From Minisyncoccota bacterium (lineage in GTDB: Bacteria; Patescibacteriota; Minisyncoccia; Phycocordibacterales; DATDSR01): 64,000 nucleotides of DNA. The notes beneath the pieces are model-generated. The model made no database searches and had not been told where the DNA came from. It was given only the letters and a program-made list of their open reading frames with translations. The translations under genes were made by a program, and so were the position numbers. The stretch lies in the NCBI GenBank assembly GCA_036517655.1, contig DATDVE010000013.1, positions 28,364 through 92,363 of the forward strand, written 5' to 3'. Shown here in pieces: positions 2,289 through 55,427 of the stretch (positions are counted from its first letter, which is position 1; the number at the start of each line of letters is the position of its first letter).

Positions 2289-3350
2289 ATGACAAACAAA
2301 CTAATTCTCACAGGTCTCCTCTCGGGCCTCATTTTAGTGCCTGGCTTAGTTAGCGCCCAGTATTACACTGGTATGTATCCTCAGTACCAGAGCCAGTACC
2401 AGACTTATCCGTACACTTACGGATACAATTACGGTCAGGTTTTGGGAGCTTCCTACTATCCTTATCAGCAATATCAACCTGGTTGCAACTTCACAGTTAA
2501 TCTTTCGCTTGGTTCTACACATCCACAAGTGGCTGATCTAAATAGGATGTTAGGTATAGGAGAGGGATCGTATTTTGGCGCGGCCACTTATAACGCAGTT
2601 GTGCGTTTCCAGAATCAATATGCAAGCGAAGTGCTCTATCCTGCAGGTCTCACGTCTGGGACAGGCTTCGTGGGTTCGTTCACGCGCAACAAATTAAATT
2701 CACTTTGCAACGGACAATCCAGTTTGCAAATGGGAATGAGCATGTACGGCGGCTATCCATATTACGGACAAGTTGCTGGTGCATACTACAATGCGTATCC
2801 GTATTACAACTACCCAACATATCCTACTTACCCCACGTATCCAACTTATGGCACACCTACTCTTAACTTCTACGCCTCAAACACGAATGTTAATTACAAC
2901 GACGTAGTGACATTAAACTGGAACGGCACAAATATTTCGTCATGCAACGCAAGCAGCGGTTGGAGCGGCAGCAAAAGCATAAGTGGCACGGAGTCGCGCA
3001 CTATTAGTTCGGGCACTAACTTTACTCTCACGTGTTATGGCACAAATGGCGAGCAAGTCACGCGCAACGTCTATGTGAGCACAAGCGGTACTAACACTGG
3101 CAATATAAGCATCAACTTCTATGCCAATCCGGCCAACGTTTACTCGGGGGGTAGTACTACACTCTATTGGACTACAACCGGTGCCAATAACTGCACGGCA
3201 TCTGGTATAAACTGGTCAGGTTCAAGGGGGACTTCTGGCAACGAAGTGGTTTACAATCTAACGTCTACTCGCACTTACACTCTCTCTTGTTCCAACTCTT
3301 CTGGTCAGAGTGCAACCCAAAGTGCCACTGTGGGAGTTCTATCCAATTAG
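2289..3350 (+). CDS. Secreted protein with Tyr/Gln/Pro-rich low-complexity segments, putative peptidoglycan-binding-like domain and Ig-like repeats
   Basis: Signal peptide. YPQYQSQYQTYPYTYGYNYG and YPTYPTYPTYPTYG tracts. CNFTVNLSLG...PAGLTSGTGFVGSF domain shared with ORF 42325-45807. Repeated TLNWNGTNISSCNASSGWSGSKS-like Ig-fold modules. Confidence 0.6.
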   Translation: MTNKLILTGLLSGLILVPGLVSAQYYTGMYPQYQSQYQTYPYTYGYNYGQVLGASYYPYQQYQPGCNFTVNLSLGSTHPQVADLNRMLGIGEGSYFGAATYNAVVRFQNQYASEVLYPAGLTSGTGFVGSFTRNKLNSLCNGQSSLQMGMSMYGGYPYYGQVAGAYYNAYPYYNYPTYPTYPTYPTYGTPTLNFYASNTNVNYNDVVTLNWNGTNISSCNASSGWSGSKSISGTESRTISSGTNFTLTCYGTNGEQVTRNVYVSTSGTNTGNISINFYANPANVYSGGSTTLYWTTTGANNCTASGINWSGSRGTSGNEVVYNLTSTRTYTLSCSNSSGQSATQSATVGVLSN

Positions 3351-4285
3351 TGACAAACAAGCGAAGGACGAAACTTAGAATCGCTGTTTTATCCGGCGGA
3401 CCCGGAAGTGAGAGGGAGGTAAGTCTAGATTCTGGAAGGAATGTAGTTAGAGCGCTGGAAACTGGAGAAAACAAGTCTAGGTATATAGTAATACCTCTTA
3501 AGTTTCGCGATCCTCGATTACTTATGTCCAGACTCCAGCGCATCCAGCCTCATGTTGTTTTTCCAGTGTTGCACGGCGAGTTTGGCGAAGATGGCAAAGT
3601 TCAGGCTCTTCTGGAAGTATTCGGCAAGCCATATATCGGCTCGAGAGTGCTTGCCTCGGCGCTTGCGATGGATAAAGTGATTTCATCCAAACTTTTGCAC
3701 GCCGAGGGCGTGCGCGTTCCTAAGGAAATCACCCCGCGAAGCCAAGTAAATTTATTTGGCGGAGTGGGGTCATGTATTGTGAAGCCAAGGAACGGAGGCT
3801 CGAGCGTGGGGGTCTCGATAGTAAGAAATAAAAAAGACTTACAAAAAGCTATTAAGTTAGCCGAAAGAGAGGGCGAACCACTGGTTCAGGAATATCTATC
3901 GGGCAGAGAGTTCACTTGCGGGGTGCTCGAATTTGCGAAGGGCAAACCCAGCGCCCTGCCTGTGACAGAGATTATCCCCAAGAGTAAGTTCTTCGACTAC
4001 AAAGCCAAGTACATGAAGGGCGGTAGCGAAGAGATTACGCCGGCCGGTATATCGAGAAAGTTAACGGAAGAAATTCAACAGAGAGCTTTGCTTGCTCATA
4101 AAGTTTTGGCTTGCCGACATATATCTCGATCAGATTTTATATATTCGCGAGGCAAGCTCTATTATCTCGAGACCAACACCATGCCCGGCATGACGAGCAC
4201 GTCACTCATCCCGCAAGCCGTAAGAGCAGCCAAAATGACGATGCCCGAATTCTGCGATCGCTTAGTCCAAGCTACTCTTCAGTAA
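3350..4285 (+). CDS. ddl: D-alanine--D-alanine ligase (ATP-grasp)
   Basis: IAVLSGGPGSEREVSLDSG N-terminus plus ATP-grasp motifs. Start is probably the GTG at 3350 immediately after the upstream stop; the ORF-track start at 3287 overlaps the previous gene. Confidence 0.8.
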   Translation: MTNKRRTKLRIAVLSGGPGSEREVSLDSGRNVVRALETGENKSRYIVIPLKFRDPRLLMSRLQRIQPHVVFPVLHGEFGEDGKVQALLEVFGKPYIGSRVLASALAMDKVISSKLLHAEGVRVPKEITPRSQVNLFGGVGSCIVKPRNGGSSVGVSIVRNKKDLQKAIKLAEREGEPLVQEYLSGREFTCGVLEFAKGKPSALPVTEIIPKSKFFDYKAKYMKGGSEEITPAGISRKLTEEIQQRALLAHKVLACRHISRSDFIYSRGKLYYLETNTMPGMTSTSLIPQAVRAAKMTMPEFCDRLVQATLQ

Positions 4286-4341
4286 CTCACCCTACCCTCT
4301 CTTATAGATAAGAGAGGGCGAGACAGAGTCCGGGTGAGTTA
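4283..4341. mobile_element. MITE-like palindromic element copy 1
   Basis: TIR TAACTCACCC (4283-4292) / GGGTGAGTTA (4332-4341). Internal 24-bp palindrome CCCTCTCTTATAGATAAGAGAGGG. Its first TAA is the ddl stop codon. Confidence 0.8.
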
Positions 4342-11138: not shown

Positions 11139-11191
11139 GCTCCACCCCCCGGCTTATTATACGATATAATTAAACAAGGAGGGACTGGCCA
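11139..11191. promoter_or_regulatory. AT-rich divergent promoter region inside GC-rich island III
   Basis: CGGCTTATTATACGATATAATTAAAC with a TATAAT -10 box. Strong AAGGAGG SD for the plus gene. Confidence 0.4.
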
Positions 11192-11845
11192 ATGCCTGAG
11201 TCCAAGCAGCTCTTTTTACGCGCGATTCCGGATATCAAGGACACCGCCGGACAAGTTCCCGCGAGTGCGGAGGAGATACCTGTCCTGGTCCTGCCCGGCG
11301 GTCGGCCGCCAAAGCGACAGAATGAGGACGATGTGGGCTACGATGCCTCAACTAGGGCCATCATCTGCCCCAGTCTCGCCTTCGACGACGTCAATCCCGC
11401 CATGCGCAAGACGCTCTTCGACTTCAAGGAGCCCGCCCACGATCATACGCACCGCGGCAAGATCAAGCTTATTCCTGGTCGCGGAAATCCGGACGAGTGG
11501 GTCTGGATGATGGAGCCGGGTGAGCACGTCTTCCTGGGTCTGGGGGTCGTGCTCGGACTCACCAGTCCGTGGCGCGCCCACACCGTGCCACGAGGCTCGA
11601 CGCCGAATCGTCACTTCCTCATGTTGCTCGACGCCACGGTGCCGATCGATTCCGGTTTCCGCGGCGAGCCAGTTGCGCATCTTTGGCACACGGGGAAGGA
11701 ATCCTTTCCCCTTCGCCACGGCAATCGGTTTGTCCAGTTCGAATTCTGGAAGGCCGAGTTGCCCACGCTCGTGCAACTGCCACCCGGCGAAGTTCTGCCG
11801 GTCGGTATCCGGGGCACAAATTGCAACGGTTCAACCAGGGAGTAG
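11192..11845 (+). CDS. dUTPase/dCTP-deaminase superfamily protein (GC-rich xenolog)
   Basis: Motifs DVGYDAS (~AGYDL), PRGSTP (~RSG) and IDSGFRGEPV (~IDSDYRGE) of the dUTPase fold. A canonical dut exists separately at 16039. Confidence 0.5.
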   Translation: MPESKQLFLRAIPDIKDTAGQVPASAEEIPVLVLPGGRPPKRQNEDDVGYDASTRAIICPSLAFDDVNPAMRKTLFDFKEPAHDHTHRGKIKLIPGRGNPDEWVWMMEPGEHVFLGLGVVLGLTSPWRAHTVPRGSTPNRHFLMLLDATVPIDSGFRGEPVAHLWHTGKESFPLRHGNRFVQFEFWKAELPTLVQLPPGEVLPVGIRGTNCNGSTRE

Positions 11846-22122: not shown

Positions 22123-25100
22123 ATGACTGGCCCCACACCGGCTAATTTGCCAGAGAAGTCTGACGCTGCCAAGAGAGAAGAAGAAACTCTCAAGTTTTGG
22201 CAGGAAAACAAAATCTTCGAGAAGTCCCTCAAGTTAAGAGAGGGCAAAGAAGAGTTTGTCTTTTATGATGGCCCACCGTTTGCTACCGGCTTGCCCCACC
22301 ATGGCACATTACTTTCCTCTGTGGCTAAAGATGTTATTCCGCGATACAAAACAATGCGCGGGTTTTATGTACGCAGGCGCTGGGGCTGGGATACTCACGG
22401 TTTACCTATAGAGAATATGATCGAGAAGGATTTGGGGCTAAAGTCAAAAAAAGATATTTTGGCATTGGGGATTGAGCAGTTTAACGAAGCTTGCCGGGCT
22501 AAAGTTATGCAATACGCGCATGATTGGCAGAAATACGTTGATCGAGTTGGGCGCTGGGTTGAGTTTGAGAGCGCATACAAGACAATGGACGCAACGTACA
22601 CAGAGAGCGTGTGGTGGGCGCTCAAACAAATGCACGAGAAAGGCTTGCTATATGAGGGCAGGAAAGTGCTCATGTACTGTCCACATTGCGAGACGCCCCT
22701 GGCCAAAGCCGAGATTGCCATGGATAACTCATATAAAGATGTTACAGAAGAAGCCGTCACAGTGAAGTTTAGGTTGAAAATTGAAAATTGGAAATTGAAA
22801 ATTGCAGATACGCCCACGTATCTGCTGGCCTGGACTACCACGCCATGGACACTCCCTGCCAATGTGGCACTAGCTGTTGGGCCGGAGATCGAGTACTCGT
22901 TAGTAACTCACCCGGACTCCGTCTCGCCCTCTCTTATTAATAAGAGAGGGGTAGGGGTGAGTTATATTGTGGCTTCCGCATTAGTTGAGAAGCATTTTGG
23001 CAAAGATGCAAAAGTTGAGAAAACTTTTTTTGGCAAAGATTTAGAGGGGATAGAGTACGAGCCGCTCTTCCAGATTCCAGCTGTCCAGCAATCTGGTAAG
23101 CCAGCGTACTATGTTGCTCTGGCAGACTTTGTGAGTACAGAAGAAGGCACAGGCATTGTGCACACGGCTGTGATATATGGCGAGGACGACTACCAGCTAG
23201 GACTGAAAAATGATTTGCCCATGGTTCCCATATTAAATTCAAATGGCACTTACAATGATTTAGTGCCGGAGTTTTTGCAGGGGCAATACATCAAGAAAGC
23301 AGATAAGTTAGTGATAGAGGATCTCGAGAAGAGGGGTTTACTTTTCTCCAAAGCGCCAAACACGCATAGTTATCCGCATTGTTATCGTTGTGGCACGGCG
23401 CTCATATATAACGCGCTCTCCAGTTGGTTTGTCAACATTCAGAAGATCAAAGCGCGCATGATTGAGCTCAATGAGAAGATAAACTGGGTGCCAGAGCACC
23501 TGAAGCACGGCAGATTCTTGAACATTGTCGAGAACGCCCCCGATTGGACAATCTCGCGTAACAGATTCTGGGCAAGTCCATTGCCGATCTGGAAATGTAG
23601 TGAATGCGATTTAGTTAAAGTTGTGGGATCCCTCTCGGATTTGGAAGATAACCGCTCCACCAAACCGAATAAGTACATTTTGGTTCGTCATGGTCAGAGC
23701 GAAAAGAATAGTGGCAACGGAGAGCAGGGGGTCATCGCCACTACTCGCGAGGGTGATAGGTACCACTTAACAGAAGAAGGTCGAGAGCAGAGCAGGAAAA
23801 TTGCCTCTGAACTCAAATCACAAAACATTGACCTAATTGTGACCTCGCCTTATCTGCGCACTAAGGAGACGGCAGAGGCAATAGGAAGCCTTCTGGGCGT
23901 GAAGGTAGAAGAGGACGAAAGATTGAAGGAACTCCAGCTGGGTCAGACGCTCGAGGGCAAGACATGGGATGCTTTCAGAGAATTCGAGGGGAAGCGCGGT
24001 TTCGATGATCACTTAGGAGAGGGAGAGAGTTGTCGCGAGATGTTGGAACGTATGAGAGCCGTTGTTGTTGACCTAGATAAGAAGTACCAAGGGAAAAGCA
24101 TTGTTCTTGTGAGCCATGGTGATCCACTTTGGCTTCTGCGTTCTTATCTTATGAATCTCTCTCCTCAAGAAACACTCAAGCAGCATGATTCTCTGTATCC
24201 TAAGCGGGGGGAATTTTATGTTTTATCTCACAGCAATTACCCAAGGAACAAAAACATGGAGCTTGATTTTCACCGGCCCTACATTGATGCGATTAAGCTT
24301 GCTTGTTCATGTGGGGGCGAAATGGTGCGCATACCGGAGGTGGTTGATTGCTGGGTGGAATCTGGCTCGATGCCCTTCGCCGAGTATCATTACCCCACAG
24401 AAAACAAAAAAGAATTTGAAGGCCGATTTCCGGGAGACTACATAGCCGAGTACATTTCCCAGACCAGGACTTGGTTCTATTACATGCTCGCTGTTTCGAC
24501 AGCACTCTTTGATCGCGAGCCATTCAAGAATGTTGTAACAACTGGCAACTTACTTGCAGCGGATGGAGCCAAGATAAGTAAGTCTAAAGGCAACTATACG
24601 GACCCGCTTCTTCTGATTGATAAATATGGAGCAGATGCATATCGCTACTACGAAATGGTATCTGTTGTTATGCAGGGGGAAGATGCGCTCTTCAAAGACG
24701 ACGAGGTGAAAGAAGTGTATCAGCGCATGATAAACATTCTCTGGAATGTTGTTCAATTTTATACGACGTATAAAATTGAAGGGCAAAGTGCAAAGGTCAA
24801 AAATCAAAATTACACTTCAAAATTTGAAAATGTGCTGGATCGGTGGATACTCGCAAGATTGGCAGAACTCAATCGTGATGTGACAGAGAATCTAGATAAA
24901 TTTGATACAGTCAAAGCCGGTCGGCCAATCAGGGACTTTGTCACGGATCTATCAACCTGGTATATTCGCCGGTCGCGCGATCGCTTTAAATCAGATAATG
25001 CGCAAGATAGAGACAGTGCTATTGGGACGACTAGATTTGTGCTGCTGGAGCTCTCTAAACTAATAGCGCCGTTTATGCCATTCCTTGCCGAACAAGTATA

Positions 25101-25605
25101 CAAAGCCGTAGGTGGTGAACTCGAGTCAGTCCATCTGGAGAACTGGACTGAAATAAAGTCCGAGCCAGAGCATTCTGATGTTCTTGAGAACACCAGAATA
25201 ACGCGCGACATAGTGTCGCTAGCGCTCGAGGCACGCCAGAAGGAGGGGATCAAAGTGCGCCAGCCGCTTGCAAGTTTACAAACTAGCGCAAAGCTTGCTC
25301 CAGAATATCTGGAGTTGATAAAAGACGAGGTGAATGTCAAAGAAGTAAAGTTTGGCCCAGAGCTCCTTCTCGACACAAACATAACGCCTGAACTCGAACT
25401 CGAAGGCAAGATGCGCGATCTAGTAAGATCTGTGCAAGAGAAGCGCAAGGACTTGGGTCTCCAGCCCACTGATCAGGTCAATCTCACTCTCCCAACTTCA
25501 CTTGGGGATCTGATCCCTAAGTTTGAAAGCGAAATCAAAAAATCTGTGCATGCACAAAATGTGTCATTAGCAGACACACAAGAAATAAAGATAGAAAAAG
25601 TATGA
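22123..25605 (+). CDS. ileS: Isoleucine--tRNA ligase with in-frame MITE insertion and inserted histidine-phosphatase domain
   Basis: PFATGLPHHGT (HIGH), WTTTPWTLPAN, KISKSKGN (KMSKS). 1160 aa. MITE at 22904-22964. PGAM-like domain (LVRHGQSEKN, TSPYLRTKETAEAI, LVSHGDP) at about 23632-24255, between the CxxC and CxC zinc-finger halves. Confidence 0.9.
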   Translation: MTGPTPANLPEKSDAAKREEETLKFWQENKIFEKSLKLREGKEEFVFYDGPPFATGLPHHGTLLSSVAKDVIPRYKTMRGFYVRRRWGWDTHGLPIENMIEKDLGLKSKKDILALGIEQFNEACRAKVMQYAHDWQKYVDRVGRWVEFESAYKTMDATYTESVWWALKQMHEKGLLYEGRKVLMYCPHCETPLAKAEIAMDNSYKDVTEEAVTVKFRLKIENWKLKIADTPTYLLAWTTTPWTLPANVALAVGPEIEYSLVTHPDSVSPSLINKRGVGVSYIVASALVEKHFGKDAKVEKTFFGKDLEGIEYEPLFQIPAVQQSGKPAYYVALADFVSTEEGTGIVHTAVIYGEDDYQLGLKNDLPMVPILNSNGTYNDLVPEFLQGQYIKKADKLVIEDLEKRGLLFSKAPNTHSYPHCYRCGTALIYNALSSWFVNIQKIKARMIELNEKINWVPEHLKHGRFLNIVENAPDWTISRNRFWASPLPIWKCSECDLVKVVGSLSDLEDNRSTKPNKYILVRHGQSEKNSGNGEQGVIATTREGDRYHLTEEGREQSRKIASELKSQNIDLIVTSPYLRTKETAEAIGSLLGVKVEEDERLKELQLGQTLEGKTWDAFREFEGKRGFDDHLGEGESCREMLERMRAVVVDLDKKYQGKSIVLVSHGDPLWLLRSYLMNLSPQETLKQHDSLYPKRGEFYVLSHSNYPRNKNMELDFHRPYIDAIKLACSCGGEMVRIPEVVDCWVESGSMPFAEYHYPTENKKEFEGRFPGDYIAEYISQTRTWFYYMLAVSTALFDREPFKNVVTTGNLLAADGAKISKSKGNYTDPLLLIDKYGADAYRYYEMVSVVMQGEDALFKDDEVKEVYQRMINILWNVVQFYTTYKIEGQSAKVKNQNYTSKFENVLDRWILARLAELNRDVTENLDKFDTVKAGRPIRDFVTDLSTWYIRRSRDRFKSDNAQDRDSAIGTTRFVLLELSKLIAPFMPFLAEQVYKAVGGELESVHLENWTEIKSEPEHSDVLENTRITRDIVSLALEARQKEGIKVRQPLASLQTSAKLAPEYLELIKDEVNVKEVKFGPELLLDTNITPELELEGKMRDLVRSVQEKRKDLGLQPTDQVNLTLPTSLGDLIPKFESEIKKSVHAQNVSLADTQEIKIEKV
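22904..22964. mobile_element. MITE-like palindromic element copy 2, in frame within ileS
   Basis: TAACTCACCC...GGGGTGAGTTA with internal CCCTCTCTTATTAATAAGAGAGGG. Translated as VTHPDSVSPSLINKRGVGVSY inside IleRS. Confidence 0.8.
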
Positions 25606-29790: not shown

Positions 29791-30848
29791 ACGAACCACA
29801 GAGAATAATAGTTACCCCCAGTCTTTCCGGCATCATCAAAGTGGCGGTTGTCGCTCTTTGTATTGTGGCTCTCTTTCTCGTCCGCAACGTAATTCTTATC
29901 ATGCTTACTTCTCTTGTCATAGCTTCTGCCATCGAGCCCGGGGTTAAGGGACTTACCAAGAAGGGGTTGCCCCGTGTGGTATCAGTCCTACTCATATATC
30001 TGCTCTTTGCCCTTATCTTCTTCATCTTCACACTCATCTTCATCCCACCGATGCTGTCGGAAGTTTCTAATCTTTCTGTTGTCTTGCCGGGGTATCTTGA
30101 GAGTGTGAATGTTTCCGATGTTATCCCGGACATTATCCCCGGAGGGGACTTAGTCGGCGGTGAGTTGGTAGATACTTTCTCGATCAGATCCGGTATCGAG
30201 CAGTTGCAGAGTGCTCTTGCTGGGTTGTCCAAAGGATTTCTCCACACAGCTTCGACTATCTTCGGTGGTGCGCTCTCGGCCATGCTTGTATTGGTGATCT
30301 CATTTTATCTTGCTGTGGAAGAACGGGGGATAGAGACATTCTTGCGCGTAGTTACTCCAATACAGAAAGAGAATTATGCCATCAATCTCTGGAAGCGGAC
30401 ACAGGAGAAAATTGGTCTCTGGCTCCAGGGGCAGCTCTTGCTCGCTGTCATTGTGGGCGTGCTTGTCTACTTGGGCCTCTTCATATTGCAAGTGCCGTAC
30501 GCTACTTCGCTTGCAGCTCTTGCCGCTCTGCTCGAGATTATTCCGATTTTTGGCCCGATCATAGCGGCCATACCGGCTATCATAATCGCTTTCTCGATTA
30601 GCCCCACTCTTGGTCTAATGGTCGTGGGCCTCTATGTCATAATCCAGCAATTCGAGAATCACCTTATCTATCCCTTAGTTGTGACCAAGATCGTAGGTAT
30701 ACCACCTATCATCGTAATTGTGGCTCTGCTTGCTGGCGGTCAGCTTGCCGGGATATTGGGCTTCTTGCTTGCTATCCCGCTTACAACCGTCTTGGTCGAA
30801 CTTTTCAACGATCTAGAGAAGCACAAGTTGGCTGCACAAAAGACTTAA
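29787..30848 (+). CDS. AI-2E family transporter (PerM/UPF0118)
   Basis: Eight predicted TM helices. LLEIIPIFGPIIAAIPAII signature. Confidence 0.75.
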   Translation: MNEPQRIIVTPSLSGIIKVAVVALCIVALFLVRNVILIMLTSLVIASAIEPGVKGLTKKGLPRVVSVLLIYLLFALIFFIFTLIFIPPMLSEVSNLSVVLPGYLESVNVSDVIPDIIPGGDLVGGELVDTFSIRSGIEQLQSALAGLSKGFLHTASTIFGGALSAMLVLVISFYLAVEERGIETFLRVVTPIQKENYAINLWKRTQEKIGLWLQGQLLLAVIVGVLVYLGLFILQVPYATSLAALAALLEIIPIFGPIIAAIPAIIIAFSISPTLGLMVVGLYVIIQQFENHLIYPLVVTKIVGIPPIIVIVALLAGGQLAGILGFLLAIPLTTVLVELFNDLEKHKLAAQKT

Positions 30849-32269
30849 TGTCCGATAAGTTCTACATCACAACTACTACGCCATATGTAAACGGCGACCC
30901 GCATATTGGGTTCGCGCGTGAGATTGTTGTAGCAGACGCTATCGCTCGCTTCAGGAAAATTATGGGCGACGAAGTGCGCTTCAACACTGGCACTGACGAG
31001 CACGGACAGAAAATATTTGAGAAGGCTCGAGAAGAAGGTCTAGAGCCCAGAGATTATGTAGATAAACTTGCGCCCAGATTCGCGGCGCTCAAGAGTCCGC
31101 TTGATCTCTCGTTTACTGATTTCTCGCGCACATCAAGTGAGCAACACAAGGTGGCTGCACAGGAGATGTGGAAGCGGTGCAATAAGAACGGTTATATCTA
31201 TAAAGGCAAGCACAAAATTAAATATTGCATAGGCTGTGAGCTAGAGAAGACAGATTCAGAACTTGACAGTGACAAGTGCCCAATTCATCCCAATCGCGAA
31301 TTAGAAAAAAGAGAAGAAGAAAACTACTTTTTCAAGTTTTCTAAACTTGCTCCCAAATTGCTTGAGCTGTACAAAGATAATCCAGAATTTGTGAGGCCAG
31401 ATTTCAGGATGACAGAGATCAGAACTTTCGTAGAGCGAGGCTTGCAAGATTTCTCTATCTCGCGACTTAAGTCAAAAATGAGTTGGGGAGTGCCAGTGCC
31501 CGACGATCCAGAACATGTTATGTACGTATGGTTCGACGCCCTCGTAATATATATTTCTCCCTTGGGTTGGCCAGAAGATGAGAATATGGGTGGCTGGTGG
31601 CCCGGCATGCAAGTCTGTGGCAAGGACAATCTTCGCCAGCAGACGGCCATGTGGCAAGCTATGCTCATAGCAGCCGGACTACCTGCTTCAACCCAGGTGC
31701 TTGTTTTTGGTTTTATAACTGGCGATGGGGGTATCAAAATGAGTAAGAGCTTGGGTAATGTTGTTGATCCCGTGGCTTTGGTAAATGATTGGGGGACAGA
31801 TGCTGTTCGCTATTTCCTGTTGCGCGAGCTTAGTTTGTGGGAAGATAGCCCGTTTACGCCCGAGCGCTTCAAAGAAGCATATAACGCTAACCTGGCAAAC
31901 GGCCTGGGGAATCTTGCGTCGAGAATTATGAAAATGGCGGAGGTAAATCTAGATACGCCGGTTAAAATTCCCGATAACTCTCTACCAGACGATTATAAAA
32001 AGTTAATGGACGAGTTTGGATTGCAGAAGGCAGCTGATTATATCTGGACTGAAATTGGCAGACTAGACACTCTCATCCAATCAAGTGAGCCATTCAAGTT
32101 AGTTAAGAGCGACCCAGAGAAGGGAAAAGAATTAATTCAAGAGTTGGTGGTGGACCTCTATACAATTGCCAGCATGTTAAACCCGTTCATACCAGAAACA
32201 GCGCAAGCGATCAAAGACGCAGTGAAGGGAAACAAGAGTTTTACTAAGCCACTTTTCCCTCGTAAATAA
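30848..32269 (+). CDS. metG: Methionine--tRNA ligase (short form)
   Basis: PYVNGDPHIGFA (HIGH region) and KMSKSLGN. The stop TAA is the first 3 nt of the composite element. Confidence 0.9.
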   Translation: MSDKFYITTTTPYVNGDPHIGFAREIVVADAIARFRKIMGDEVRFNTGTDEHGQKIFEKAREEGLEPRDYVDKLAPRFAALKSPLDLSFTDFSRTSSEQHKVAAQEMWKRCNKNGYIYKGKHKIKYCIGCELEKTDSELDSDKCPIHPNRELEKREEENYFFKFSKLAPKLLELYKDNPEFVRPDFRMTEIRTFVERGLQDFSISRLKSKMSWGVPVPDDPEHVMYVWFDALVIYISPLGWPEDENMGGWWPGMQVCGKDNLRQQTAMWQAMLIAAGLPASTQVLVFGFITGDGGIKMSKSLGNVVDPVALVNDWGTDAVRYFLLRELSLWEDSPFTPERFKEAYNANLANGLGNLASRIMKMAEVNLDTPVKIPDNSLPDDYKKLMDEFGLQKAADYIWTEIGRLDTLIQSSEPFKLVKSDPEKGKELIQELVVDLYTIASMLNPFIPETAQAIKDAVKGNKSFTKPLFPRK

Positions 32270-32716
32270 CTCACCCGGACTAAAGTCTCGACCTCTCTTA
32301 TAAACAAGAGAGGTAAAAAACAGAATCGTGAACAAATTTTTGGCGAACAATAAAATTCTGAAGAACCGCAGAAGGGAATTGCGCAGGAATCAGACTGAGG
32401 CCGAAAAGATTATGTGGGCATACCTTAGGGGTAAACAAATTGGGGTCCGTTTCTTGCGTCAATACAGTCTGGGTCCTTACATTATTGACTTCTATTGTCC
32501 TAGGATCAAACTTGCTGTAGAGTTAGATGGTCCCGTCCACGATTTACCAGTAAGTCAGGAGTATGATAGAGAAAGAGGATTATATTTAGGTAGTCTAGGG
32601 GTGAGGACAGTTAGGTTTAAGAATGCCACAGTAATGAATAATCCAACTAAAATTACAAATAAACTTAAACCTCTCTTATCTATAAGAGAGGTCGAGGCTT
32701 AGGCCCGGGTGAGTTA
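32267..32716. mobile_element. Composite TA-flanked element carrying a DUF559 endonuclease gene (probable full-length relative of the MITEs)
   Basis: Left end: TAACTCACCC+GGACTAAAGTCTCG+hairpin ACCTCTCTTATAAACAAGAGAGGT. Right end: hairpin ACCTCTCTTATCTATAAGAGAGGT+CGAGGCTTAGGCC+CGGGTGAGTTA. Ends are about 85% identical to the MITE ends. Confidence 0.75.
32328..32702 (+). CDS. DUF559 (Vsr-like PD-(D/E)xK) endonuclease-domain protein
   Basis: RRELRRNQTEAEKIMWAYLR...FLRQYSLGPYIIDFYCP..LAVELDG.VH...D.R...L...G..RF matches the DUF559 consensus. The C-terminal 10 aa are encoded by the right-end hairpin. Confidence 0.75.
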   Translation: MNKFLANNKILKNRRRELRRNQTEAEKIMWAYLRGKQIGVRFLRQYSLGPYIIDFYCPRIKLAVELDGPVHDLPVSQEYDRERGLYLGSLGVRTVRFKNATVMNNPTKITNKLKPLLSIREVEA

Positions 32717-33477
32717 TGATCATCGACGTACATAGTCACTTAAACGACGAGCAGTTTGAGTCTGATCTGCCCGAAACTGTGGCCCGCATGAAGGGGGCGG
32801 GGGTGTCTACTATTGTGGTAGGCACTGATCTTGCCACCTCACGCAGAGCCCTCGATGTGGCTAAGATGTACGGCCTATGGGCGACTATCGGCCAGCATCC
32901 AACGGATAACGTGGAAGAGAACTTCGACGAGGCGGCTTATGCTGAACTTGCTAAAAATAAGGAAGTGGTTGCCATCGGTGAGTGTGGACTCGACTTTTTC
33001 CTAGACAAGAGTGATGAGGGGCATGCAAGACAAGAGAAACTTTTTCATCTTCATCTTGAACTTTCTGCCAAAACAGGTAAGCCCTTAATGATTCACTCAC
33101 GAGGCGCGTACGAAAAAATATCCGTTAATCTGGCCACCAACATTCGCTTGCTCCCGTCCACCCCCGGCAATGTGCACTTTTTCACCGGTTCGTGGGTAGA
33201 TGCAAAAAGATTACTGGACCTTGGATTCACAATTTCATTCCCTGGAGTTATTACTTTTACCAGTGATTATGACGAAGTCATAAAGAATGTGCCTAAGGAT
33301 ATGTTCATGGTTGAGACAGATTCTCCCTTTGCTGCTCCGGTGCCCTATAGAGGTAAGCGCAACGAACCGGCCTATGTGGTGGAAATTGTTAAAAAGATCG
33401 CCGAATTGCGTGGCATGAGCCCAGAGAAAGTAGCCGAGCTAAGTTTGGCTACTGCCAAACGCGTATTTGCCTTGTAG
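32716..33477 (+). CDS. tatD: TatD-family metal-dependent DNase/hydrolase
   Basis: MIIDVHSHLN start, GECGLD motif. 253 aa. Confidence 0.85.
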   Translation: MIIDVHSHLNDEQFESDLPETVARMKGAGVSTIVVGTDLATSRRALDVAKMYGLWATIGQHPTDNVEENFDEAAYAELAKNKEVVAIGECGLDFFLDKSDEGHARQEKLFHLHLELSAKTGKPLMIHSRGAYEKISVNLATNIRLLPSTPGNVHFFTGSWVDAKRLLDLGFTISFPGVITFTSDYDEVIKNVPKDMFMVETDSPFAAPVPYRGKRNEPAYVVEIVKKIAELRGMSPEKVAELSLATAKRVFAL

Positions 33478-34527: not shown

Positions 34528-34725
34528 ATGCAATGCTATTTCTGTACAAATAACGCTACCCACATAGATTACAAGGACCTGGAGACTCTCAAGAAGTTTC
34601 TAGATCAATACGCGCGAATCTCTCGCAAGCGCACAACCGGAGTCTGTTCCCTCCACCAGAGGAAACTAGCCCGAGCAATCAAACACGCCCGCTTCATGGC
34701 ACTCCTACCATTTGTGGCATCATAA
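34528..34725 (+). CDS. rpsR: 30S ribosomal protein S18
   Basis: CYFCTNN...IDYKD...ISRKRTTGV...QRKLARAIKHARFMALLPF. Confidence 0.88.
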   Translation: MQCYFCTNNATHIDYKDLETLKKFLDQYARISRKRTTGVCSLHQRKLARAIKHARFMALLPFVAS

Positions 34726-34781
34726 CTCACCCAACCCTCTCTCATAGATAAGAGAGGGCGAGACGGAGTCCGGGTGAGTTA
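34723..34781. mobile_element. MITE-like palindromic element copy 4 between convergent rpsR and efp
   Basis: TAACTCACCC (34723-34732), CCCTCTCTCATAGATAAGAGAGGG, GGGTGAGTTA (34772-34781). Its TAA is the rpsR stop and its TTA is the efp stop on the minus strand. Confidence 0.8.
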
Positions 34782-35339
34782 GACCCTCGAAACATACTCA
34801 CCAGTTTCAGTGTTGATCACGATAATATCATTCTCATTGACAAACAATGGCGCGTTCACCTGTGCTCCTGTTTCTAGAACTACTACTTTAGTGCCGCCCT
34901 GAGCTGTGTTGCCGCGGGTAGATGGCGGCGCTTCGGTTACTTTGAGCTCTACTTTGATGGGCATCTTTACTCCCAGCAACTTTTCTTCAAACTCTATCAA
35001 ATCTACCAGCATATTCGCCTTCAAGAATTTGCCCGAGTCGCCGATTTTATCAGAGGGGAGCTCAAATCTTTGGGCAGGGTTATTGGGCTCACAGAACCAA
35101 TATTCACCTTTATTCTCGTAGATAAACTTGGCGGGACGAGTTTCTATCTCTGCCTCTTCGACCTTCTCACTTTGATGAAAAGAATTTTCGGCTACTTTGC
35201 CCGTCATTAAATTGCGCAATTTAGTGTCATTAACAGGCTTGCGCTGTTGCTTGCGAAAGACGTGGCTTGAGAGCACTTCGTATGGGGTGCCACCCAAGAC
35301 GATGAACTTGCCTGGTTTGACTTCGTTATATTCAAGCAT
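34779..35339 (-). CDS. efp: Elongation factor P
   Basis: MLEYNEVKPGKFIVLGGTPYEVLSSHVFRKQQRKP; 186 aa; KOW-like plus two OB domains. Confidence 0.9.
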   Translation of the reverse strand: MLEYNEVKPGKFIVLGGTPYEVLSSHVFRKQQRKPVNDTKLRNLMTGKVAENSFHQSEKVEEAEIETRPAKFIYENKGEYWFCEPNNPAQRFELPSDKIGDSGKFLKANMLVDLIEFEEKLLGVKMPIKVELKVTEAPPSTRGNTAQGGTKVVVLETGAQVNAPLFVNENDIIVINTETGEYVSRV

Positions 35340-47688: not shown

Positions 47689-48417
47689 CTTGGAGGCCTT
47701 GCCTCCAAGTTATAAGGGTGATGATTAGATGTCTCCAATAGCAAAACTATCTAATTTTTTTGATTTTTTTACTTCTAACATGAGTTGCAAAGAATCTAAA
47801 GCAAATTTCCTGTAGTCATTCGTGTTCTTAAACTGGTCAAGTATGATTTTTTTCTCACAAATAGACAAGGTACTTTCTTTCATATATTCGTCCCAACTAC
47901 TTCGCACCAACTTAGAGGCCTTGCCTCCAAGTTGGTGAACTTCTGGGTTCAGGTTCACATAAGCACTACAGTGCAGCAGGTCGTCATTGCTGAGTATTCG
48001 TCTTGCTTTAAATTTTCCTTGGTACAAAGACCCAGATCGTTTATATCTATTATTTATGTAATAGGCAAAACCTCCAGATAGTCTTCCAAGGAACATACTG
48101 ATACCGTTTTCCACTAGTTGTTTCAATATCAGATGGAAATGATTCGGATTTAAGCAATACGCGACTATTTCCACGAGTTTTTTCTTGGGTCGTTTTTTAT
48201 CAGGTTTAGCAAAAGACTGTTCATAAATGCTACCTATTGGCTCAACAACGTTAAAAAGTATTAGGCTTTCCACAAACCGATTTGAATCTAAAGGATCTCG
48301 AGTGATATCGCACCCTTCAGCCCCGCGATTACAAATGTGGTAGTACTCATCGTGAGCGAAGGGCTCCTTTCGTGATGACATTGGTTTAATCTAACACTTG
48401 GAGGCAAGGCCTCCAAG
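47689..48417. mobile_element. IS200/IS605-like or REPtron-like element: Y1 (HUH) transposase flanked by inverted REP hairpins
   Basis: Hairpins CTTGGAGGC-CTT-GCCTCCAAG (47689-47709) and CTTGGAGGC-AAG-GCCTCCAAG (48397-48417) in opposite orientation. A third copy (47911-47931) lies inside the transposase ORF. Confidence 0.65.
47725..48381 (-). CDS. Y1 HUH transposase (IS200/IS605 TnpA or RAYT)
   Basis: YYHICNRG (~YHV.NRG), NPNHFHLIL (HUH motif), SLYQGKF (catalytic Tyr region). Confidence 0.7.
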   Translation of the reverse strand: MSSRKEPFAHDEYYHICNRGAEGCDITRDPLDSNRFVESLILFNVVEPIGSIYEQSFAKPDKKRPKKKLVEIVAYCLNPNHFHLILKQLVENGISMFLGRLSGGFAYYINNRYKRSGSLYQGKFKARRILSNDDLLHCSAYVNLNPEVHQLGGKASKLVRSSWDEYMKESTLSICEKKIILDQFKNTNDYRKFALDSLQLMLEVKKSKKLDSFAIGDI

Positions 48418-51634: not shown

Positions 51635-54600
51635 ATGAAGAGGCTCTTACTTTTTTCGGCCTTTACTGTCTTTGCTGTTGCTCTATTTGCTGGCAGAGCT
51701 TATGCCTTGCCCACCGCTTATCTTGGCTATGAAGGCCAGCTCACCAACTCCTCCGATACAGCCCTGACGGGGAGTTACGATATTACCTTTAAGCTTTATT
51801 ATGTTTTGTCTGGAGGCACAGCTATCTGGACAGAGACCCACACTGATCTATCTGTCTCAAGCGGTTATTTTGCCGCCACTTTAGGTTCCACAACGCCCTT
51901 TTCGAATATAGATTTCCGCAACCCTCTTTACCTTGGTATCACTGTCGAGTCTGATTCGGAAATGTCACCCAGACAATTGATCCATTCAAGTGCCTATAGT
52001 CAAACTGCTTCTACCACGCTCTCTGTTTACGCCACTACCACCCAACCCACCAGCGCCTCGGGTGGTAGCGTCTACTACAACGCCACTGACGGCCGGGCCT
52101 TCATATACGACGCGGTCAATTCTGCCTGGCGACGTCTTGGCCTTTGGGCCACCACTACCACCGGTGCCGCATATTATAACGACGGTCGTGTTGGTGTGGG
52201 CACAACTTCTCCGGGTGCGACTTTCTCGGTGCAAGGTGACGAACTAATCTCTGGCACAAGTACCGTTGGCAACCTAGTCGCCACAAGTTCACTAAAAATT
52301 CTTGGCACAGCTACGTCAACCGGAGCGAACGGTTGGGATATAACGGGCGGCTGCTTCGCAATAAACGGCGTCTGTATCACCGGTAGTTCCGCCACTGACA
52401 TCACTTTCTCCACAACCTCAGCCGACTACTGGAAGACCGTTAACAATTTCTTTTCCACTACTTCGGCTGATTATAATTTTGAGATAGCTGTCTCTGCCAC
52501 AAGCTCCTTGCCCAAACTTTCCACTCTTGCAGGCCTTGTTACCCTCGGCTCAAGTACAGCAACCACCACTGCCCTAGGTCACTTCGGCATCACGTCTAAT
52601 TTCTTGGTCAGTGGTTTCAGTTCCCTAACCAAATTTGGCGCCACAAACGGCACAAGTACTACCTTCCAAACCTCCAATCTGGGTGTGGGTACTGATTACC
52701 TGACCGACATCACCGGTACTGGTCTCTCGATCGTGGGTGGAGTCCTCAACTGCGCCACCGCTTCTCCCCTTACAATTGGCTGCCTCTCTACCACCGACTG
52801 GACTCTATTCAACAACAAAGTCTCCTCCACTTCTATAGATACTTCTGCTGAACTTGCTGCACTTCTTACTGACGAATCCGGCAGTGGCGCTTTTATCCTT
52901 GATTCTTCGAACCTTCCTTCTAAATGGGCCACCTCGACCGGTTCGACTACTGCGATTATCCCAAGTGGCGGTGATTCTATCAGTTTGGGTATTGGCACAA
53001 GCACTCCCGGCTCACGCCTGTCAGTGGGTGGAGTTGCTAACTTCAGTGCAGCAACTTCGTCATTTTATTCTAGTGGCGGTATTGATCTTGCAGCCGGCTG
53101 CTTCGCTATAAACGGCACTTGCCTCACTGCCGGTGGTATCACGGCGAGTCAGATTGCGCAGAGCAAGTGGGCTACGTCGACTACAGACTCGAGTGCTATC
53201 TACTCTGCCGAAGCAACCAAAGTTGGTATTGGTACTAGCTCGCCATACGCTGCTCTCTCCGTAGTGGGCGCATCGGGCGTAGTGGCTGATCGCTACACGG
53301 CCACAAGCACGGCTACGTCGTCAGACTTCCAGGGTTTGTTTGCCACCTTTGCCACTACCACTTCACTCTTTAGTACCACTGCTTCAACTACCAATTTGTA
53401 TGCTGATACCGCAAGTCTTGCTTCATCTACAATATATTCTCTCAACCTGCTCGGTAGTGGCACAACTACAGCTTTCAACGGCATCAATCTCACTAATGGC
53501 TGTTTCTCGATCAGGGGGACTTGCGTGGGTGGGTCCTCATCATCTGGCGCCCCTTCTAATTCCAAGTGGTCAACTTCAACAGACAACGTTTCGATTTATG
53601 TTAATGCTGCGACTAACGTGGGTATTGGCACAAGTTCGCCATATACTACCCTTGCCGTCTCCGGTTCTGTCATTCTTGATTCAAATTCGATTACGTTCGC
53701 ATCAAGCTCTGCTACGTCGCTCACCATCAACTACGGTGTTTCCTCAACGTCAACTATTCCGGTAACTAAGTGGAACGCTTGGTCTATTGCAACCTCCACT
53801 ACAGCTCTCTCTATTTTTAGCATTGATACTATAGGTCCGTATGCAAGTTCAAGCTTCGCTGGTAACTTCGTAATTGACGGCGGCAGATTAAGTCATGATG
53901 CAAGCACTGGCGAAACCTCGATCGTTAACTTGAGCACCGGACCGCTTAACTTTGAAGACGGGGCTGGCTGGGTCTCGTGGACTAATATTGCCGCCACGAG
54001 CTCAGCCACGGCTGATAACGACGTACAGGCCTACACTGCCCAACTGGGGAGCAACGACGTGCTCACTATCTACGGCCAAGCTGATGGCCCGAGTAACGGC
54101 GCCATTGATACCTTGCGCACAATTATTGGCACCACCACGGCCACACTCATGAGTTCGACTAACATTCCCTATAACTCTCTTATAGTCTCAAACTCTGCCT
54201 TGTGCGTGGGCAATACTTCCGCTGGTAACTGCACGGAATTTGCCATGAAGCGTGGTCAGATTGTGGGTTGGGGTGGAGGCATCTTTATGGCAAGCTCCAC
54301 GGGCATAGTAGGTGTCGGTACCACTTCTCCATACGCCACACTTTCTGTGGTGGGAGCATCGGGTGTTGTGGCAGATAAATACTTTGCCACATCTACGCGC
54401 GCCACAAGCACCTTCATGGGTGGTGTAGAGATCGGCACAAGTACGGCACCCAAAAATTGGAAGCTTACAGTCCAGGGCGGCGTGTGCATCACGAGTGGTA
54501 ATACTTGTCCCGACGTTGAATCTCCCGGCGGCCTGACTGTTGATACGGCTGATGCAACACCGGACGCAGATGACATAGGCGAAGTCTTCGACGTGGCCGA

Positions 54601-55363
54601 GCGCTACCTAGCCAGCGAAGAAGTGAGCGCTGGCGAAATAGTAGCTCTTGATCTTGAGGCAGAAAAGAGCGCAACAGTTAAGCGAGCGACCGAGGGAGAT
54701 GTGCTGATAGGCGTAATGTCCACTGCACCCGCGATTGCTTTCAACGGTCCAAGCTTGACCCTCGGTCCTGACAGAGAAGCGACAAGCACTAAACCCCTAG
54801 TTGCCCTAGTTGGTCGCGTGCCGGTCAAAGTAAACGTTGAGGGCGGCGAAATCAGAAAAGGTGACAGGATATCAGCGAGCAGTGAACTTGGGATAGGAAA
54901 AAAAGCTTTGCCAAGCGAGCAATCTGTCGGCTTTGCTCTTGAGAACTGGCCAAACGTAGACGATCCAGAGGATGACACGGTGCTTGTGTATGTTAAGTTA
55001 TCAGATACCGATACTCACAGAAACTCAATTGAAACTAGTGGAAACTCGTTGTCGGGAGATAAGGGAAGTAGATTAGATATGTCCGGTTGGGGCATAAACA
55101 GCGAAGGCGAACTGGTAGTTAAGAGAATAAGGGCCAAAGAATTGTGCCTGGGTAGTACATGTATTACAGAATCTGATTTGAAAGAGATCCTGAATAACCG
55201 ATCAACTGAAACTGATGGAAGTTTATTGCCGGAACCAGAAGTAACTCCCGAACCAGAGCCGGAAGTAATTCCTGAACCGGAGCAAATTGAACCGATTGAG
55301 GAAGTCGCATCTCTGCCTGAACCCGAAGAACTCACCGAGACAGTAGAGCCAATAGTAGAATAG
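51635..55363 (+). CDS. Giant secreted surface/fibre-like protein with internal repeats and acidic C-terminal PEPE repeats
   Basis: Signal peptide. 1242 aa rich in S/T/A/G. Near-duplicate modules GIGTSSPYAALSVVGASGVVADRYTATST / GVGTTSPYATLSVVGASGVVADKYFATST. C-terminus PEPEVTPEPEPEVIPEPEQIEPIEE. Confidence 0.65.
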   Translation: MKRLLLFSAFTVFAVALFAGRAYALPTAYLGYEGQLTNSSDTALTGSYDITFKLYYVLSGGTAIWTETHTDLSVSSGYFAATLGSTTPFSNIDFRNPLYLGITVESDSEMSPRQLIHSSAYSQTASTTLSVYATTTQPTSASGGSVYYNATDGRAFIYDAVNSAWRRLGLWATTTTGAAYYNDGRVGVGTTSPGATFSVQGDELISGTSTVGNLVATSSLKILGTATSTGANGWDITGGCFAINGVCITGSSATDITFSTTSADYWKTVNNFFSTTSADYNFEIAVSATSSLPKLSTLAGLVTLGSSTATTTALGHFGITSNFLVSGFSSLTKFGATNGTSTTFQTSNLGVGTDYLTDITGTGLSIVGGVLNCATASPLTIGCLSTTDWTLFNNKVSSTSIDTSAELAALLTDESGSGAFILDSSNLPSKWATSTGSTTAIIPSGGDSISLGIGTSTPGSRLSVGGVANFSAATSSFYSSGGIDLAAGCFAINGTCLTAGGITASQIAQSKWATSTTDSSAIYSAEATKVGIGTSSPYAALSVVGASGVVADRYTATSTATSSDFQGLFATFATTTSLFSTTASTTNLYADTASLASSTIYSLNLLGSGTTTAFNGINLTNGCFSIRGTCVGGSSSSGAPSNSKWSTSTDNVSIYVNAATNVGIGTSSPYTTLAVSGSVILDSNSITFASSSATSLTINYGVSSTSTIPVTKWNAWSIATSTTALSIFSIDTIGPYASSSFAGNFVIDGGRLSHDASTGETSIVNLSTGPLNFEDGAGWVSWTNIAATSSATADNDVQAYTAQLGSNDVLTIYGQADGPSNGAIDTLRTIIGTTTATLMSSTNIPYNSLIVSNSALCVGNTSAGNCTEFAMKRGQIVGWGGGIFMASSTGIVGVGTTSPYATLSVVGASGVVADKYFATSTRATSTFMGGVEIGTSTAPKNWKLTVQGGVCITSGNTCPDVESPGGLTVDTADATPDADDIGEVFDVAERYLASEEVSAGEIVALDLEAEKSATVKRATEGDVLIGVMSTAPAIAFNGPSLTLGPDREATSTKPLVALVGRVPVKVNVEGGEIRKGDRISASSELGIGKKALPSEQSVGFALENWPNVDDPEDDTVLVYVKLSDTDTHRNSIETSGNSLSGDKGSRLDMSGWGINSEGELVVKRIRAKELCLGSTCITESDLKEILNNRSTETDGSLLPEPEVTPEPEPEVIPEPEQIEPIEEVASLPEPEELTETVEPIVE

Positions 55364-55397: not shown

Positions 55398-55427
55398 TTC
55401 GATTTCCCCCTTGCGGGGGAAATCGAA
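55398..55427 (+). terminator. Strong hairpin (13-bp stem)
   Basis: TTCGATTTCCCCC-TTGC-GGGGGAAATCGAA. Confidence 0.55.

Follow-up and report, generated by a model that had tools for sequence, protein, structure and literature searches.

BoxC-like palindromic repeats bracket genes for predicted DUF559 nucleases in Patescibacteria and other bacteria

What is a palindromic repeat doing in the streamlined genome of a patescibacterium, and why does one copy of it hold a gene? This question is raised by a stretch of 64,000 nucleotides, hereafter the window, from a Minisyncoccota bacterium (assembly GCA_036517655.1, contig DATDVE010000013.1, positions 28,364 to 92,363 of the forward strand). A first-pass annotation placed its host in the Candidate Phyla Radiation (CPR), and the best protein relatives, from Paceibacterota/Parcubacteria, agree with this. 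The repeat is present in three short copies (59-61 bp) and one copy of 450 bp, all with perfect 10-bp ends (TAACTCACCC/GGGTGAGTTA), and the longest copy encloses a gene of the DUF559 family. The most interesting result of our analysis is that such repeats recurrently bracket DUF559 genes, from CPR bacteria to ycjD of Escherichia coli, which suggests a partnership similar to that of REPINs with RAYT transposases. Our preferred reading is that of a selfish, coding-tolerant palindromic repeat of the BoxC/PIT/TMECO kind with DUF559 as its cognate nuclease, and we consider the balance for and against this reading to be about even.

Repeats of this kind have been catalogued since the 1990s without a known origin, enzyme or function, and DUF559 is a very large family (22,575 clusters at 50% identity, E<=1e-3) without an agreed role. 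If the preferred reading is true, both puzzles become testable in E. coli K-12, which possesses ycjD and 23 BoxC copies.

Anatomy of the repeat

Searching the window for TAACTCACCC returned eight exact matches, which form four inverted pairs (4283/4332, 22904/22955, 32267/32707 and 34723/34772). The four copies reported by the first-pass annotation, their shared 10-bp ends and their coordinates are therefore exact. One additional site with a single mismatch (15413) is probably due to chance, and none of 100 shuffles of the window reached nine matches. The short copies occupy positions 4283..4341 (copy 1, 59 bp), 22904..22964 (copy 2, 61 bp, inside the gene of isoleucyl-tRNA synthetase, IleRS) and 34723..34781 (copy 3, 59 bp, where rpsR and efp converge), and no strand is assigned to them. 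Each consists, in order, of the P1 5' arm TAACTCACCC, a junction of 2-4 nt (TA in copy 1), the P2 hairpin, a 13-nt arm (CGAGACAGAGTCC in copy 1) and the P1 3' arm GGGTGAGTTA. P1 is the outer stem, in which TAACTCACCC(C) pairs with (G)GGGTGAGTTA; P2, inside P1, is a conserved hairpin whose 5' arm consists of pyrimidines and whose 3' arm consists of purines (CCCTCTC...GAGAGGG); and P3 is a small variable hairpin on one side of P2. In the short copies of the window, the 13-nt arm can fold as a 3-bp hairpin (GAC-NNN-GTC), and none of these 3-bp arm hairpins is individually significant relative to shuffles. The interior containing P2 is inverted in copy 2 relative to the other short copies.

Two further features had been described as shared. 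The 24-bp palindrome CCCTCTCTTAT-NN-ATAAGAGAGGG, for which the shuffle expectation is zero, is indeed perfect in two copies (4295-4318 and 22927-22950), and it presents one mismatch in copy 3 (34735-34758) and two to three mismatches at the ends of the long copy (32291-32314 and 32669-32692). Likewise, the 13-nt arm CGAGAC(A/G)GAGTCC is found in all three short copies, as its reverse complement in copy 2, and the long copy possesses related yet different arms (GGACTAAAGTCTCG and CGAGGCTTAGGCC). All copies are bounded by TA, as had been stated, which is trivial because the ends themselves begin and finish with TA.

The long copy (32267..32716, plus strand) has inverted ends of 49 nt each (32266..32314 and 32669..32717) that are 88% complementary, and each end comprises a P1 arm and two hairpins, a small one and P2. 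The left end presents the P1 arm, the hairpin GAC-TAAA-GTC and P2 (ACCTCTCTT-ATAAAC-AAGAGAGGT), and the right end presents P2, the hairpin GGC-TTAG-GCC and the P1 arm, the stem change between the two small hairpins being compensated (GAC/GTC vs GGC/GCC). Between them lies the DUF559 open reading frame (ORF; 32328..32702, plus strand, 124 aa, GTG start). This ORF, the position of copy 2 within the IleRS frame and the use of the TAA/TTA ends as stop codons by four neighbouring genes (ddl, metG, rpsR and efp) were absent from the first-pass annotation. The 450-bp copy is the gene-bearing form, of which, on the preferred reading, the 59-61-bp copies would be ORF-less derivatives.

DUF559 genes between inverted hairpins

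The window ORF matched PF04480 (E=2.9e-28) in a Pfam scan that covered 32 window ORFs, and it matched DUF559 in NCBIfam. A single-sequence search of the PDB identified 3HRL as the only solved homolog (E=6e-14). Using a DUF559 profile, 3HRL was recovered at 4e-30 and the homing endonuclease I-Bth0305I (3R3P) at 1.8e-4 over 74 of 109 positions; this profile search of the PDB did not reach Vsr of E. coli. Five residues (D54, E65, D67, G68 and H71) are invariant across 23 DUF559 sequences and all are found in the window protein, which is, judged by these matches, a predicted PD-(D/E)XK nuclease. An identical protein is encoded on 11 public contigs, each time in the order metG-DUF559-tatD, and the contig of the window is also present in ERZ4903055 and SRR3989342.

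Using the window protein as a query, a scan of metagenomes returned 80 DUF559 loci, in which we counted perfect hairpins with stems of 7 bp or more, pyrimidines in the 5' arm and purines in the 3' arm. These hairpins were found at 3.81/kb within 200 bp of the DUF559 gene vs 0.087/kb at more than 300 bp, a ~44-fold difference that is inflated because the flanks of genes are intergenic, and that we estimate at 5-10-fold against an intergenic baseline. A hairpin was present upstream in 50 of the 80 loci, downstream in 48 and on both sides in 31. The few distant hairpins of a contig were of the same sequence type as those beside the DUF559 gene of that contig. Many loci present the order P1 arm, P2, DUF559 ORF, P2, P1 arm, and several possess outer inverted repeats whose length reaches 11 nt (ACCCTCACCCC/GGGGTGAGGGT). 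In a Kryptonium locus (L038) the DUF559 gene lies between two short elements, and in two others (L013 and L095) it lies between tRNA genes with related hairpins on the flanks. Several CPR DUF559 genes start at GGGGAGTTATG.

The association also persists over long divergence. Locus L069 presents the order metG-DUF559-tatD, and the three proteins are 53, 48 and 47% identical to their counterparts in the window; the repeat ends of L069 differ in sequence from those of the window yet are still 80% complementary to each other, and the two arms thus co-evolve. This comparison indicates that the DUF559 gene has probably resided vertically at metG/tatD for a long time, its arms evolving together. In seven other loci (L096 46-2106, L084 667-2091, L073, L074, L093, L097 and L100), the DUF559 ORF and both repeat ends are nested in frame in the type I methylase HsdM at the same site (...TYHLWRG / insert / YRDIPGFCK...). 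Literature searches pairing DUF559 with mobile or palindromic repeats returned nothing relevant.

Several further observations concern DUF559 loci. The same HsdM proteins possess extra short-repeat peptides elsewhere (HPSPSGRGDGGEG and PHAGEGRGEG). DUF559 domains are also embedded in many restriction-modification proteins, a bias toward such genes: enzymes of the Eco57I/MmeI type (P0362, two copies), HsdR, Type ISP and HsdS; the proteins bearing them are P0362, P0405, P0464, P0454, P0482, P0493, P0431, P0439 and P0479. In locus L087 (150-1100), a CPR DUF559 gene is found amid ~10 tandem modules, each with two different hairpins (CCTCCCCTTAA..TTAAGGGGAGG and CCCCTCTTAGGTTAAGAGGGG) followed by GGGGGAGTTA, which form a local repeat array.

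Relation to BoxC, PIT and TMECO repeats

BoxC, PIT and the 'intrastrand triplex motif' were reportedly the subject of work by Bachellier in the 1990s and by Hoyne and Maher in 2000. A full-text search with a GC-rich version of the window blocks led to Holder et al. 2015 (PMC4666352), who define the TMECO motif, earlier named BoxC or PIT, as CCCTCNCCC-N3-6-GGGNGAGGG-N3-GGGNGAGGG, with 23 copies in E. coli K-12 and 3610 in 262 proteobacterial genomes. The arrangement of a GAGAGGG-type block against a mirrored block defines this 'triplex motif' of E. coli, whose G-rich single strand forms a purine-motif triplex in vitro; no triplex footprint in vivo and no promoter or terminator activity was found (PMC4666352). 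Copy number varies strongly between strains, the copies of K-12 are always intergenic, and the function of the motif is unknown (PMC4666352). Enterobacter asburiae possesses 143 TMECO copies, and none is reported for Salmonella.

The first-pass annotation could match the window repeat to no known family, which our comparison corrects. All short copies present the three blocks of BoxC in order (CCCTCTC, GAGAGGG and GGGTGAG), GGGTGAG being the mirror image of GAGAGGG, and the mirror relation spans nine positions (GGGAGAGAA vs GGGTGAGTT) on the strand with the short spacer (TA, AA or GTAG). In terms of sequence compatibility only, these positions would allow five G·G-C, three T·A-T and one A·A-T triads. 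The strict 9-nt TMECO consensus is not found in the window copies, which read CCCTCTCTT / AAGAGAGGG / GGGTGAGTT with A/T at the outer positions, and their second spacer, N3 in the consensus, is 2-4 or 13 nt long depending on the strand. GC-rich relatives beside metagenomic DUF559 genes (L084, L105, L114 and L133) match the strict consensus outright, e.g., CCCTCTCCC-nnn-GGGAGAGGG-CG-GGGGTGAGGG.

Both families thus share the core blocks and their order (a C-rich block, its complement after a short loop, a short spacer and the mirror block), and in both the copies are dispersed without strand bias, differ in number from one relative to another and at times form inverted pairs. Unlike TMECO, the window copies possess P3 and a second C-rich arm, CTCACCC, which closes the unit as an outer stem with TAA/TTA at its ends; in E. 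coli BoxC pairs, the P1 arms face inward. Location differs as well, since copy 2 lies inside IleRS and the three others overlap stop or start codons, in contrast to the intergenic copies of K-12. BoxC-type repeats are also known in cyanobacteria. We found no occurrence of DUF559 or of any enzyme in the published TMECO work (PMC4666352). On the order of its blocks, the window repeat is best described as an AT-rich, closed, coding-tolerant Patescibacteria variant of BoxC/TMECO and not as a strict member.

ycjD and BoxC in E. coli

The DUF559 gene of E. coli K-12 is ycjD (b1289), and TMECO number 9 (1351204-1351239) is located 168 bp downstream of it. With 23 copies in 4.6 Mb, we calculated a probability of ~0.002 that one of them falls within 200 bp of a given gene. 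The stop codon of ycjD lies within a degenerate P2 (CACCCTCTCCCTGA), and a partial duplicate of the 3' end of ycjD (...gagacggtgctggagaatattc...) is found between this stop codon and TMECO number 9 (L153, NC_000913 1351204-1351760).

Among 5426 complete E. coli genomes, 3378 possess ycjD. From a joint query, we took 60 complete genomes at even intervals; BoxC was present at 10-23 places (median 17) in the 37 genomes with ycjD and at 1-19 places (median 3) in the 23 genomes without it (Mann-Whitney p=3e-9), a correlation that is confounded by phylogroup and is supportive, not proof. ST131 and APEC strains possess 1-3 copies. No clean empty site of ycjD was found in E. coli, the interval between fabI and sapF being occupied by an efflux operon in ycjD-minus strains (NC101 and O157:H7).

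Occupied and empty sites in relatives

Because the orthologous sites are empty in relatives, the copies are inserted DNA. The first-pass annotation had tied its mobile-element interpretation to presence/absence differences, and these were found: sites are empty in L143, L146, L147, L152 and P0080 and occupied in L009. An IleRS fragment that is 77% identical to the window protein (P0080) reads LV-G-SYVV where the window reads LV-THPDSVSPSLINKRGVGV-SYIV and does not possess the 17-aa net insert, and more distant homologs have a turn of 5-6 residues at this point. The metG/tatD site of the syntenic loci L146 and L147 consists of a 15-nt spacer alone. At the rpsR/efp site, the two genes overlap by 8 nt in L146 and L147 and by 4 nt in L143. 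At ddl/pfkB, L152 reads ...ALLQ-TAG, 4 nt and the ATG of pfkB, with no element; ddl of the window ends as ...ATLQ-TAA at the same codon, and this TAA is that of P1. Finally, L149 presents no copy in 20 kb that are syntenic to the window at 72-74% nucleotide identity.

L009 presents a copy at the same rpsR/efp junction, with its interior flipped relative to the flanking genes. It is 90-93% identical to the window copies, whereas the flanking genes are 72-77% identical at the nucleotide level, and the element is thus more conserved than the genes that flank it. In L143, a remnant right end adjoins the ATG of tatD (P2, the arm TCGAGACAAAGTCC, then GAGTGAATTA). An IS110-family transposase is encoded just upstream of this remnant (L143 4182-5282), and fragments of IS66-like and Y1_Tnp genes are found further downstream (11140-12100), which suggests that the tatD locus of L143 has been rearranged.

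The net insert amounts to 51 nt in IleRS (10 nt shorter than the 61-bp copy) and to ~54 nt at efp (for a copy of 59 bp). The empty rpsR/efp site of L143 is TCTTAACTCACTCT, where the end of efp (AGA GTG AGT TAA) forms a P1 arm with one mismatch (TAACTCACTC); this is the sole P1 site with at most one mismatch in the 12.7 kb of L143. The P1-like site of L143 and the short insert of IleRS fit insertion at a half-site and a footprint of slippage or deletion (GGGT...GGGT and GTA...GTA) equally.

Fit to host genes

The copies fit closely to the genes around them. The first TAA of copy 1 is the stop codon of ddl (3287..4285), and pfkB starts 15 nt past the end of this copy. Translation of metG (30848..32269) stops at the first TAA of the long copy, whose final A is the A of the ATG of tatD (32716). 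The two TAA ends of copy 3 provide the stop codons of rpsR (34528..34725, plus strand) and of efp (34779..35339, minus strand; TTA on the forward strand). The 3' end of the DUF559 ORF crosses the right P2 hairpin, and its stop codon lies in the loop of the arm. No stop codon is possible in any frame of the all-pyrimidine and all-purine arms, and the stop codons of the element are confined to the TAA/TTA ends and to AT-rich loops or junctions.

Copy 2 lies within IleRS (22123..25605, plus strand) and is open in frame, with the predicted peptide THPDSVSPSLINKRGVGVS. In this frame, the 59-bp copies would give ...KRG*GEL, since their TA junction creates a TAG; the IleRS copy possesses GTAG in place of TA and reads ...KRGVGVS, which removes the in-frame TAG. 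This 2-nt difference is frame-saving. Translational bypass of the IleRS copy (take-off at GTA and landing at the GTA 48 nt further on) was also considered; with an open frame it is needless, and we rejected it as speculation. Copies are found in frame in other CPR genomes, including in arginyl-tRNA synthetase (ArgRS) and a glycosyltransferase (both in L006) and in L013, L051 and L058; the lengths of in-frame copies are 58, 76, 59, 64, 61 and 60. The IleRS of the window (1160 aa) has a His_Phos_1 domain (E=2e-33) inserted in its catalytic domain at residues 519-684 (23677-24174), an insertion also found in the homolog P0014, and many of its database relatives are labelled 'partial' at ~450-500 aa.

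Among the 43 distinct copies of the wider family described below, at least 13 give an in-frame TAA to an ORF of at least 70 codons, a count that background open frames explain in part, and four of these supply TAA on both sides between convergent genes. The orientation of P3 relative to the strand of the host gene, tallied among distinct copies, is 5 vs 6; this absence of bias argues against a strand-specific RNA role. The element may thus be built for tolerance in a genome with almost no intergenic space: with TAA ends that serve as stop codons, stop-free arms and a terminal A that completes an ATG, copies would sit on gene boundaries or in frame. The CPR copies would then illustrate how a selfish element persists in a streamlined genome, bringing its own stop codons and being tolerated even in an essential aminoacyl-tRNA synthetase. 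For annotation, these repeats yield recurrent low-complexity peptides (…SPSL…REG…GV…) and shift the ends of genes.

Distribution across bacteria

We searched one genome per species for pairs of ends located 32-62 nt apart. This yielded 59 loci, against ~17 expected by chance from our own arithmetic, and 43 distinct matches shared the P1/P2/P3 layout. These were found in Patescibacteria, Bacteroidota, Latescibacterota, Fibrobacterota, Ignavibacteria, Kryptonia, Marinimicrobia, one gammaproteobacterium and one metagenome-assembled genome of Bacillota. The earlier description of a dispersed family of short non-autonomous palindromes with one longer copy is upheld. No copies were found in the viral contigs and plasmids that we searched.

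P1 and P2 are conserved in sequence across these matches, and P3 varies between genomes and is constant within a genome. Because P1 is fixed by the search pattern and P2 is conserved in sequence, covariation by RNAalifold carries no information here, and P3 was assessed by shuffle z-scores instead: 13 of 26 distinct arms folded within the 5% tail of shuffles (mean z, -2.1). Rfam gave no match at gathering thresholds, the best scores in E-value mode being 9-14 bits against thresholds of 45-88.

Proposed mechanism and similar systems

We propose that DUF559 is the enzyme of the repeat and that copying proceeds by a repair route. The nuclease would nick or cut the repeat, or sequences similar to one P1 arm, and the break would be repaired with a resident element as template, in the manner of homing or gene conversion. 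By this route the copies would spread and stay alike, and their interior could flip; the relationship would be similar to the one between REPINs and a RAYT gene that is single-copy and vertically inherited. In a more general form, to which we lean less than to its opposite, DUF559 proteins would be the cognate enzymes of BoxC/TMECO-type repeats across bacteria, a third nuclease-repeat partnership beside transposase-MITE (miniature inverted-repeat transposable element) and RAYT-REPIN, and the stop-free-arm repeat, with or without its gene, would reside at the borders of genes and in frame within proteins (IleRS, ArgRS and restriction-modification subunits).

As in the REP/REPIN-RAYT system, a single-copy and apparently vertically inherited nuclease gene is flanked by inverted hairpin repeats, the repeat is also dispersed as short non-autonomous palindromes without target duplication, and fewer repeats are found in genomes without the gene (in the E. 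coli sample). In contrast to that system, the flanked gene encodes a PD-(D/E)XK DUF559 protein instead of an HUH Y1 protein, and the repeat sequence is unrelated. Rickettsia palindromic elements (RPE), whose length is ~100-150 bp, similarly add a peptide to essential genes as in-frame palindromic repeats, as seen here in IleRS and elsewhere in ArgRS and the glycosyltransferase of L006 and in HsdM. This likeness is functional only, sequence similarity being neither sought nor expected. No enzyme is named for RPE in a review of these elements (PMC10969869).

The Vsr-like 'EDxHD' homing endonucleases such as I-Bth0305I possess a homologous nuclease domain, and their small genes, too, are inserted at recurring sites, either between host genes or in frame inside them. 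The DUF559 gene differs in not being located in an intron or intein, no features of which were seen, and in being bracketed by long structured inverted ends that also occur as many ORF-less copies. This homing endonuclease family was reportedly described by Dassa in 2009 and Taylor in 2011. We know of no cleavage of an 'empty' allele by a DUF559 protein.

Several results weigh against the preferred reading, in addition to the intergenic inflation of the hairpin enrichment and the phylogroup effect in E. coli. The genome was sampled through the 64-kb window alone. No sequence signature of DUF559 acting on the repeat was found. The junctions share no consistent target duplication or net insert length, and none of five target models (TA, TTAA, no duplication, 'TAA is native' and 'one P1 arm is native', i.e., a half-site) fits all of them. 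The DUF559 gene at metG/tatD looks vertically inherited down to ~50% protein identity, which suggests no recent mobility of the long copy. O157:H7 and O55:H7 strains possess 11-14 BoxC copies without ycjD, and the nuclease is thus not needed for persistence. TMECO was found to have no link to transposons, phages or plasmids (PMC4666352). Finally, VsrA of Caulobacter, which has a DUF559 domain, is hypothesised to be a T:G mismatch-repair endonuclease, and in vitro T:G recognition by Neisseria Vsr endonucleases is cited in the same work (PMC12907096). Because of the VsrA hypothesis, it stays credible that the window DUF559 gene could encode a housekeeping repair enzyme.

Alternative explanations

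The most serious alternative, although we consider it unlikely, builds on the last points. BoxC-type structure-prone DNA would spread and decay through host replication and repair alone, by template switching or slippage at hairpins or triplexes, and DUF559 would be an unrelated Vsr-like repair nuclease that happens to sit beside the repeats. The T:G activities proposed or cited for Caulobacter and Neisseria and the persistence of BoxC in E. coli without ycjD suit this explanation, as does the replication slippage at TMECO proposed by Holder et al. (PMC4666352). The junctions also present microhomology instead of duplication: GGGT flanks 54 nt at efp (window vs L143) and GTA flanks 48 nt in IleRS. 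Against it, inverted ends that co-evolve enclose the DUF559 ORF with precision in many unrelated lineages, hairpins are strongly enriched beside DUF559 relative to the rest of the same contigs, the ORF and its ends occur as a unit in frame in HsdM, and the DUF559 profile is nearer to a homing endonuclease than to Vsr.

A second and distinctly less probable explanation is that the repeat is a functional DNA or RNA structure of the host: a module of intergenic punctuation (stop codon, hairpins, the Shine-Dalgarno-like GGGGGTGA and ATG), a terminator or stabiliser, or a triplex pause site. The TAA ends are the stop codons of four genes, the ATG of tatD uses the last A, GGGTGAGTTATG places a purine block 6 nt before the ATG, and several CPR DUF559 genes start at GGGGAGTTATG; moreover, the sequence is better conserved than the flanking genes and the G strand of TMECO forms a triplex in vitro. 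These points are opposed by the even distribution of P3 relative to host-gene strands, by the lack of an Rfam match, by the lack of promoter or terminator activity and of an in vivo triplex footprint for PIT (PMC4666352), by close relatives without the element at all three orthologous junctions and by a copy inside an essential coding sequence. An ATG located at an element end leads into a long ORF only for tatD and the DUF559 genes. A role as donor of a Shine-Dalgarno sequence or start codon was rejected, as it holds for tatD and some DUF559 genes only and not for the other copies.

A third candidate, which we regard as very unlikely, is a REP/REPIN system mobilised by the RAYT-like Y1 transposase of the window (47725..48381, minus strand, 218 aa). 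This protein matches Y1_Tnp in Pfam (1.7e-6) and REP_Tyr_transpos in NCBIfam (4.6e-9) and possesses the HUH motif HFHLIL. Hairpin repeats without target duplication are typical of Y1 substrates, and CTAC/CTAG is found beside P2 in many copies, a similar GTAG tetranucleotide being present at REP ends. Yet the RAYT gene has its own, different hairpin (TTGGAGGC-nnn-GCCTCCAA), whose three copies in the 64 kb are all at the RAYT locus, two flanking the gene (47690-47708 and 48398-48416) and one within it (47912-47930). No copy of the DUF559-type repeat is found near RAYT, and the repeat flanks DUF559 instead, in the window and in other phyla. The window RAYT with its own REP thus provides an internal contrast to the repeat that flanks DUF559.

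The proposal of the first-pass annotation, a Stowaway-like element moved by a Tc1/mariner/IS630 DDE transposase with TA target-site duplication, accounts for the terminal inverted repeats, the short length, the multiple copies and the TA at both ends, but can be set aside because TA belongs to the stem in every copy with no external duplication in 43 copies, removal of the element under the TA model leaves efp without a stop codon at rpsR/efp and makes ddl six codons longer than its ortholog in L152, the gene-bearing copy encodes a 124-aa PD-(D/E)XK protein and not a DDE transposase, and no DDE transposase was found by Pfam among the 32 window ORFs scanned.

One other perfect hairpin of the window, TTTCCCCCTTGCGGGGGAAA at 55403-55422, is unrelated in sequence to the repeat family; it is located at the end of a 1242-aa ORF (51635..55363) and is probably a terminator.

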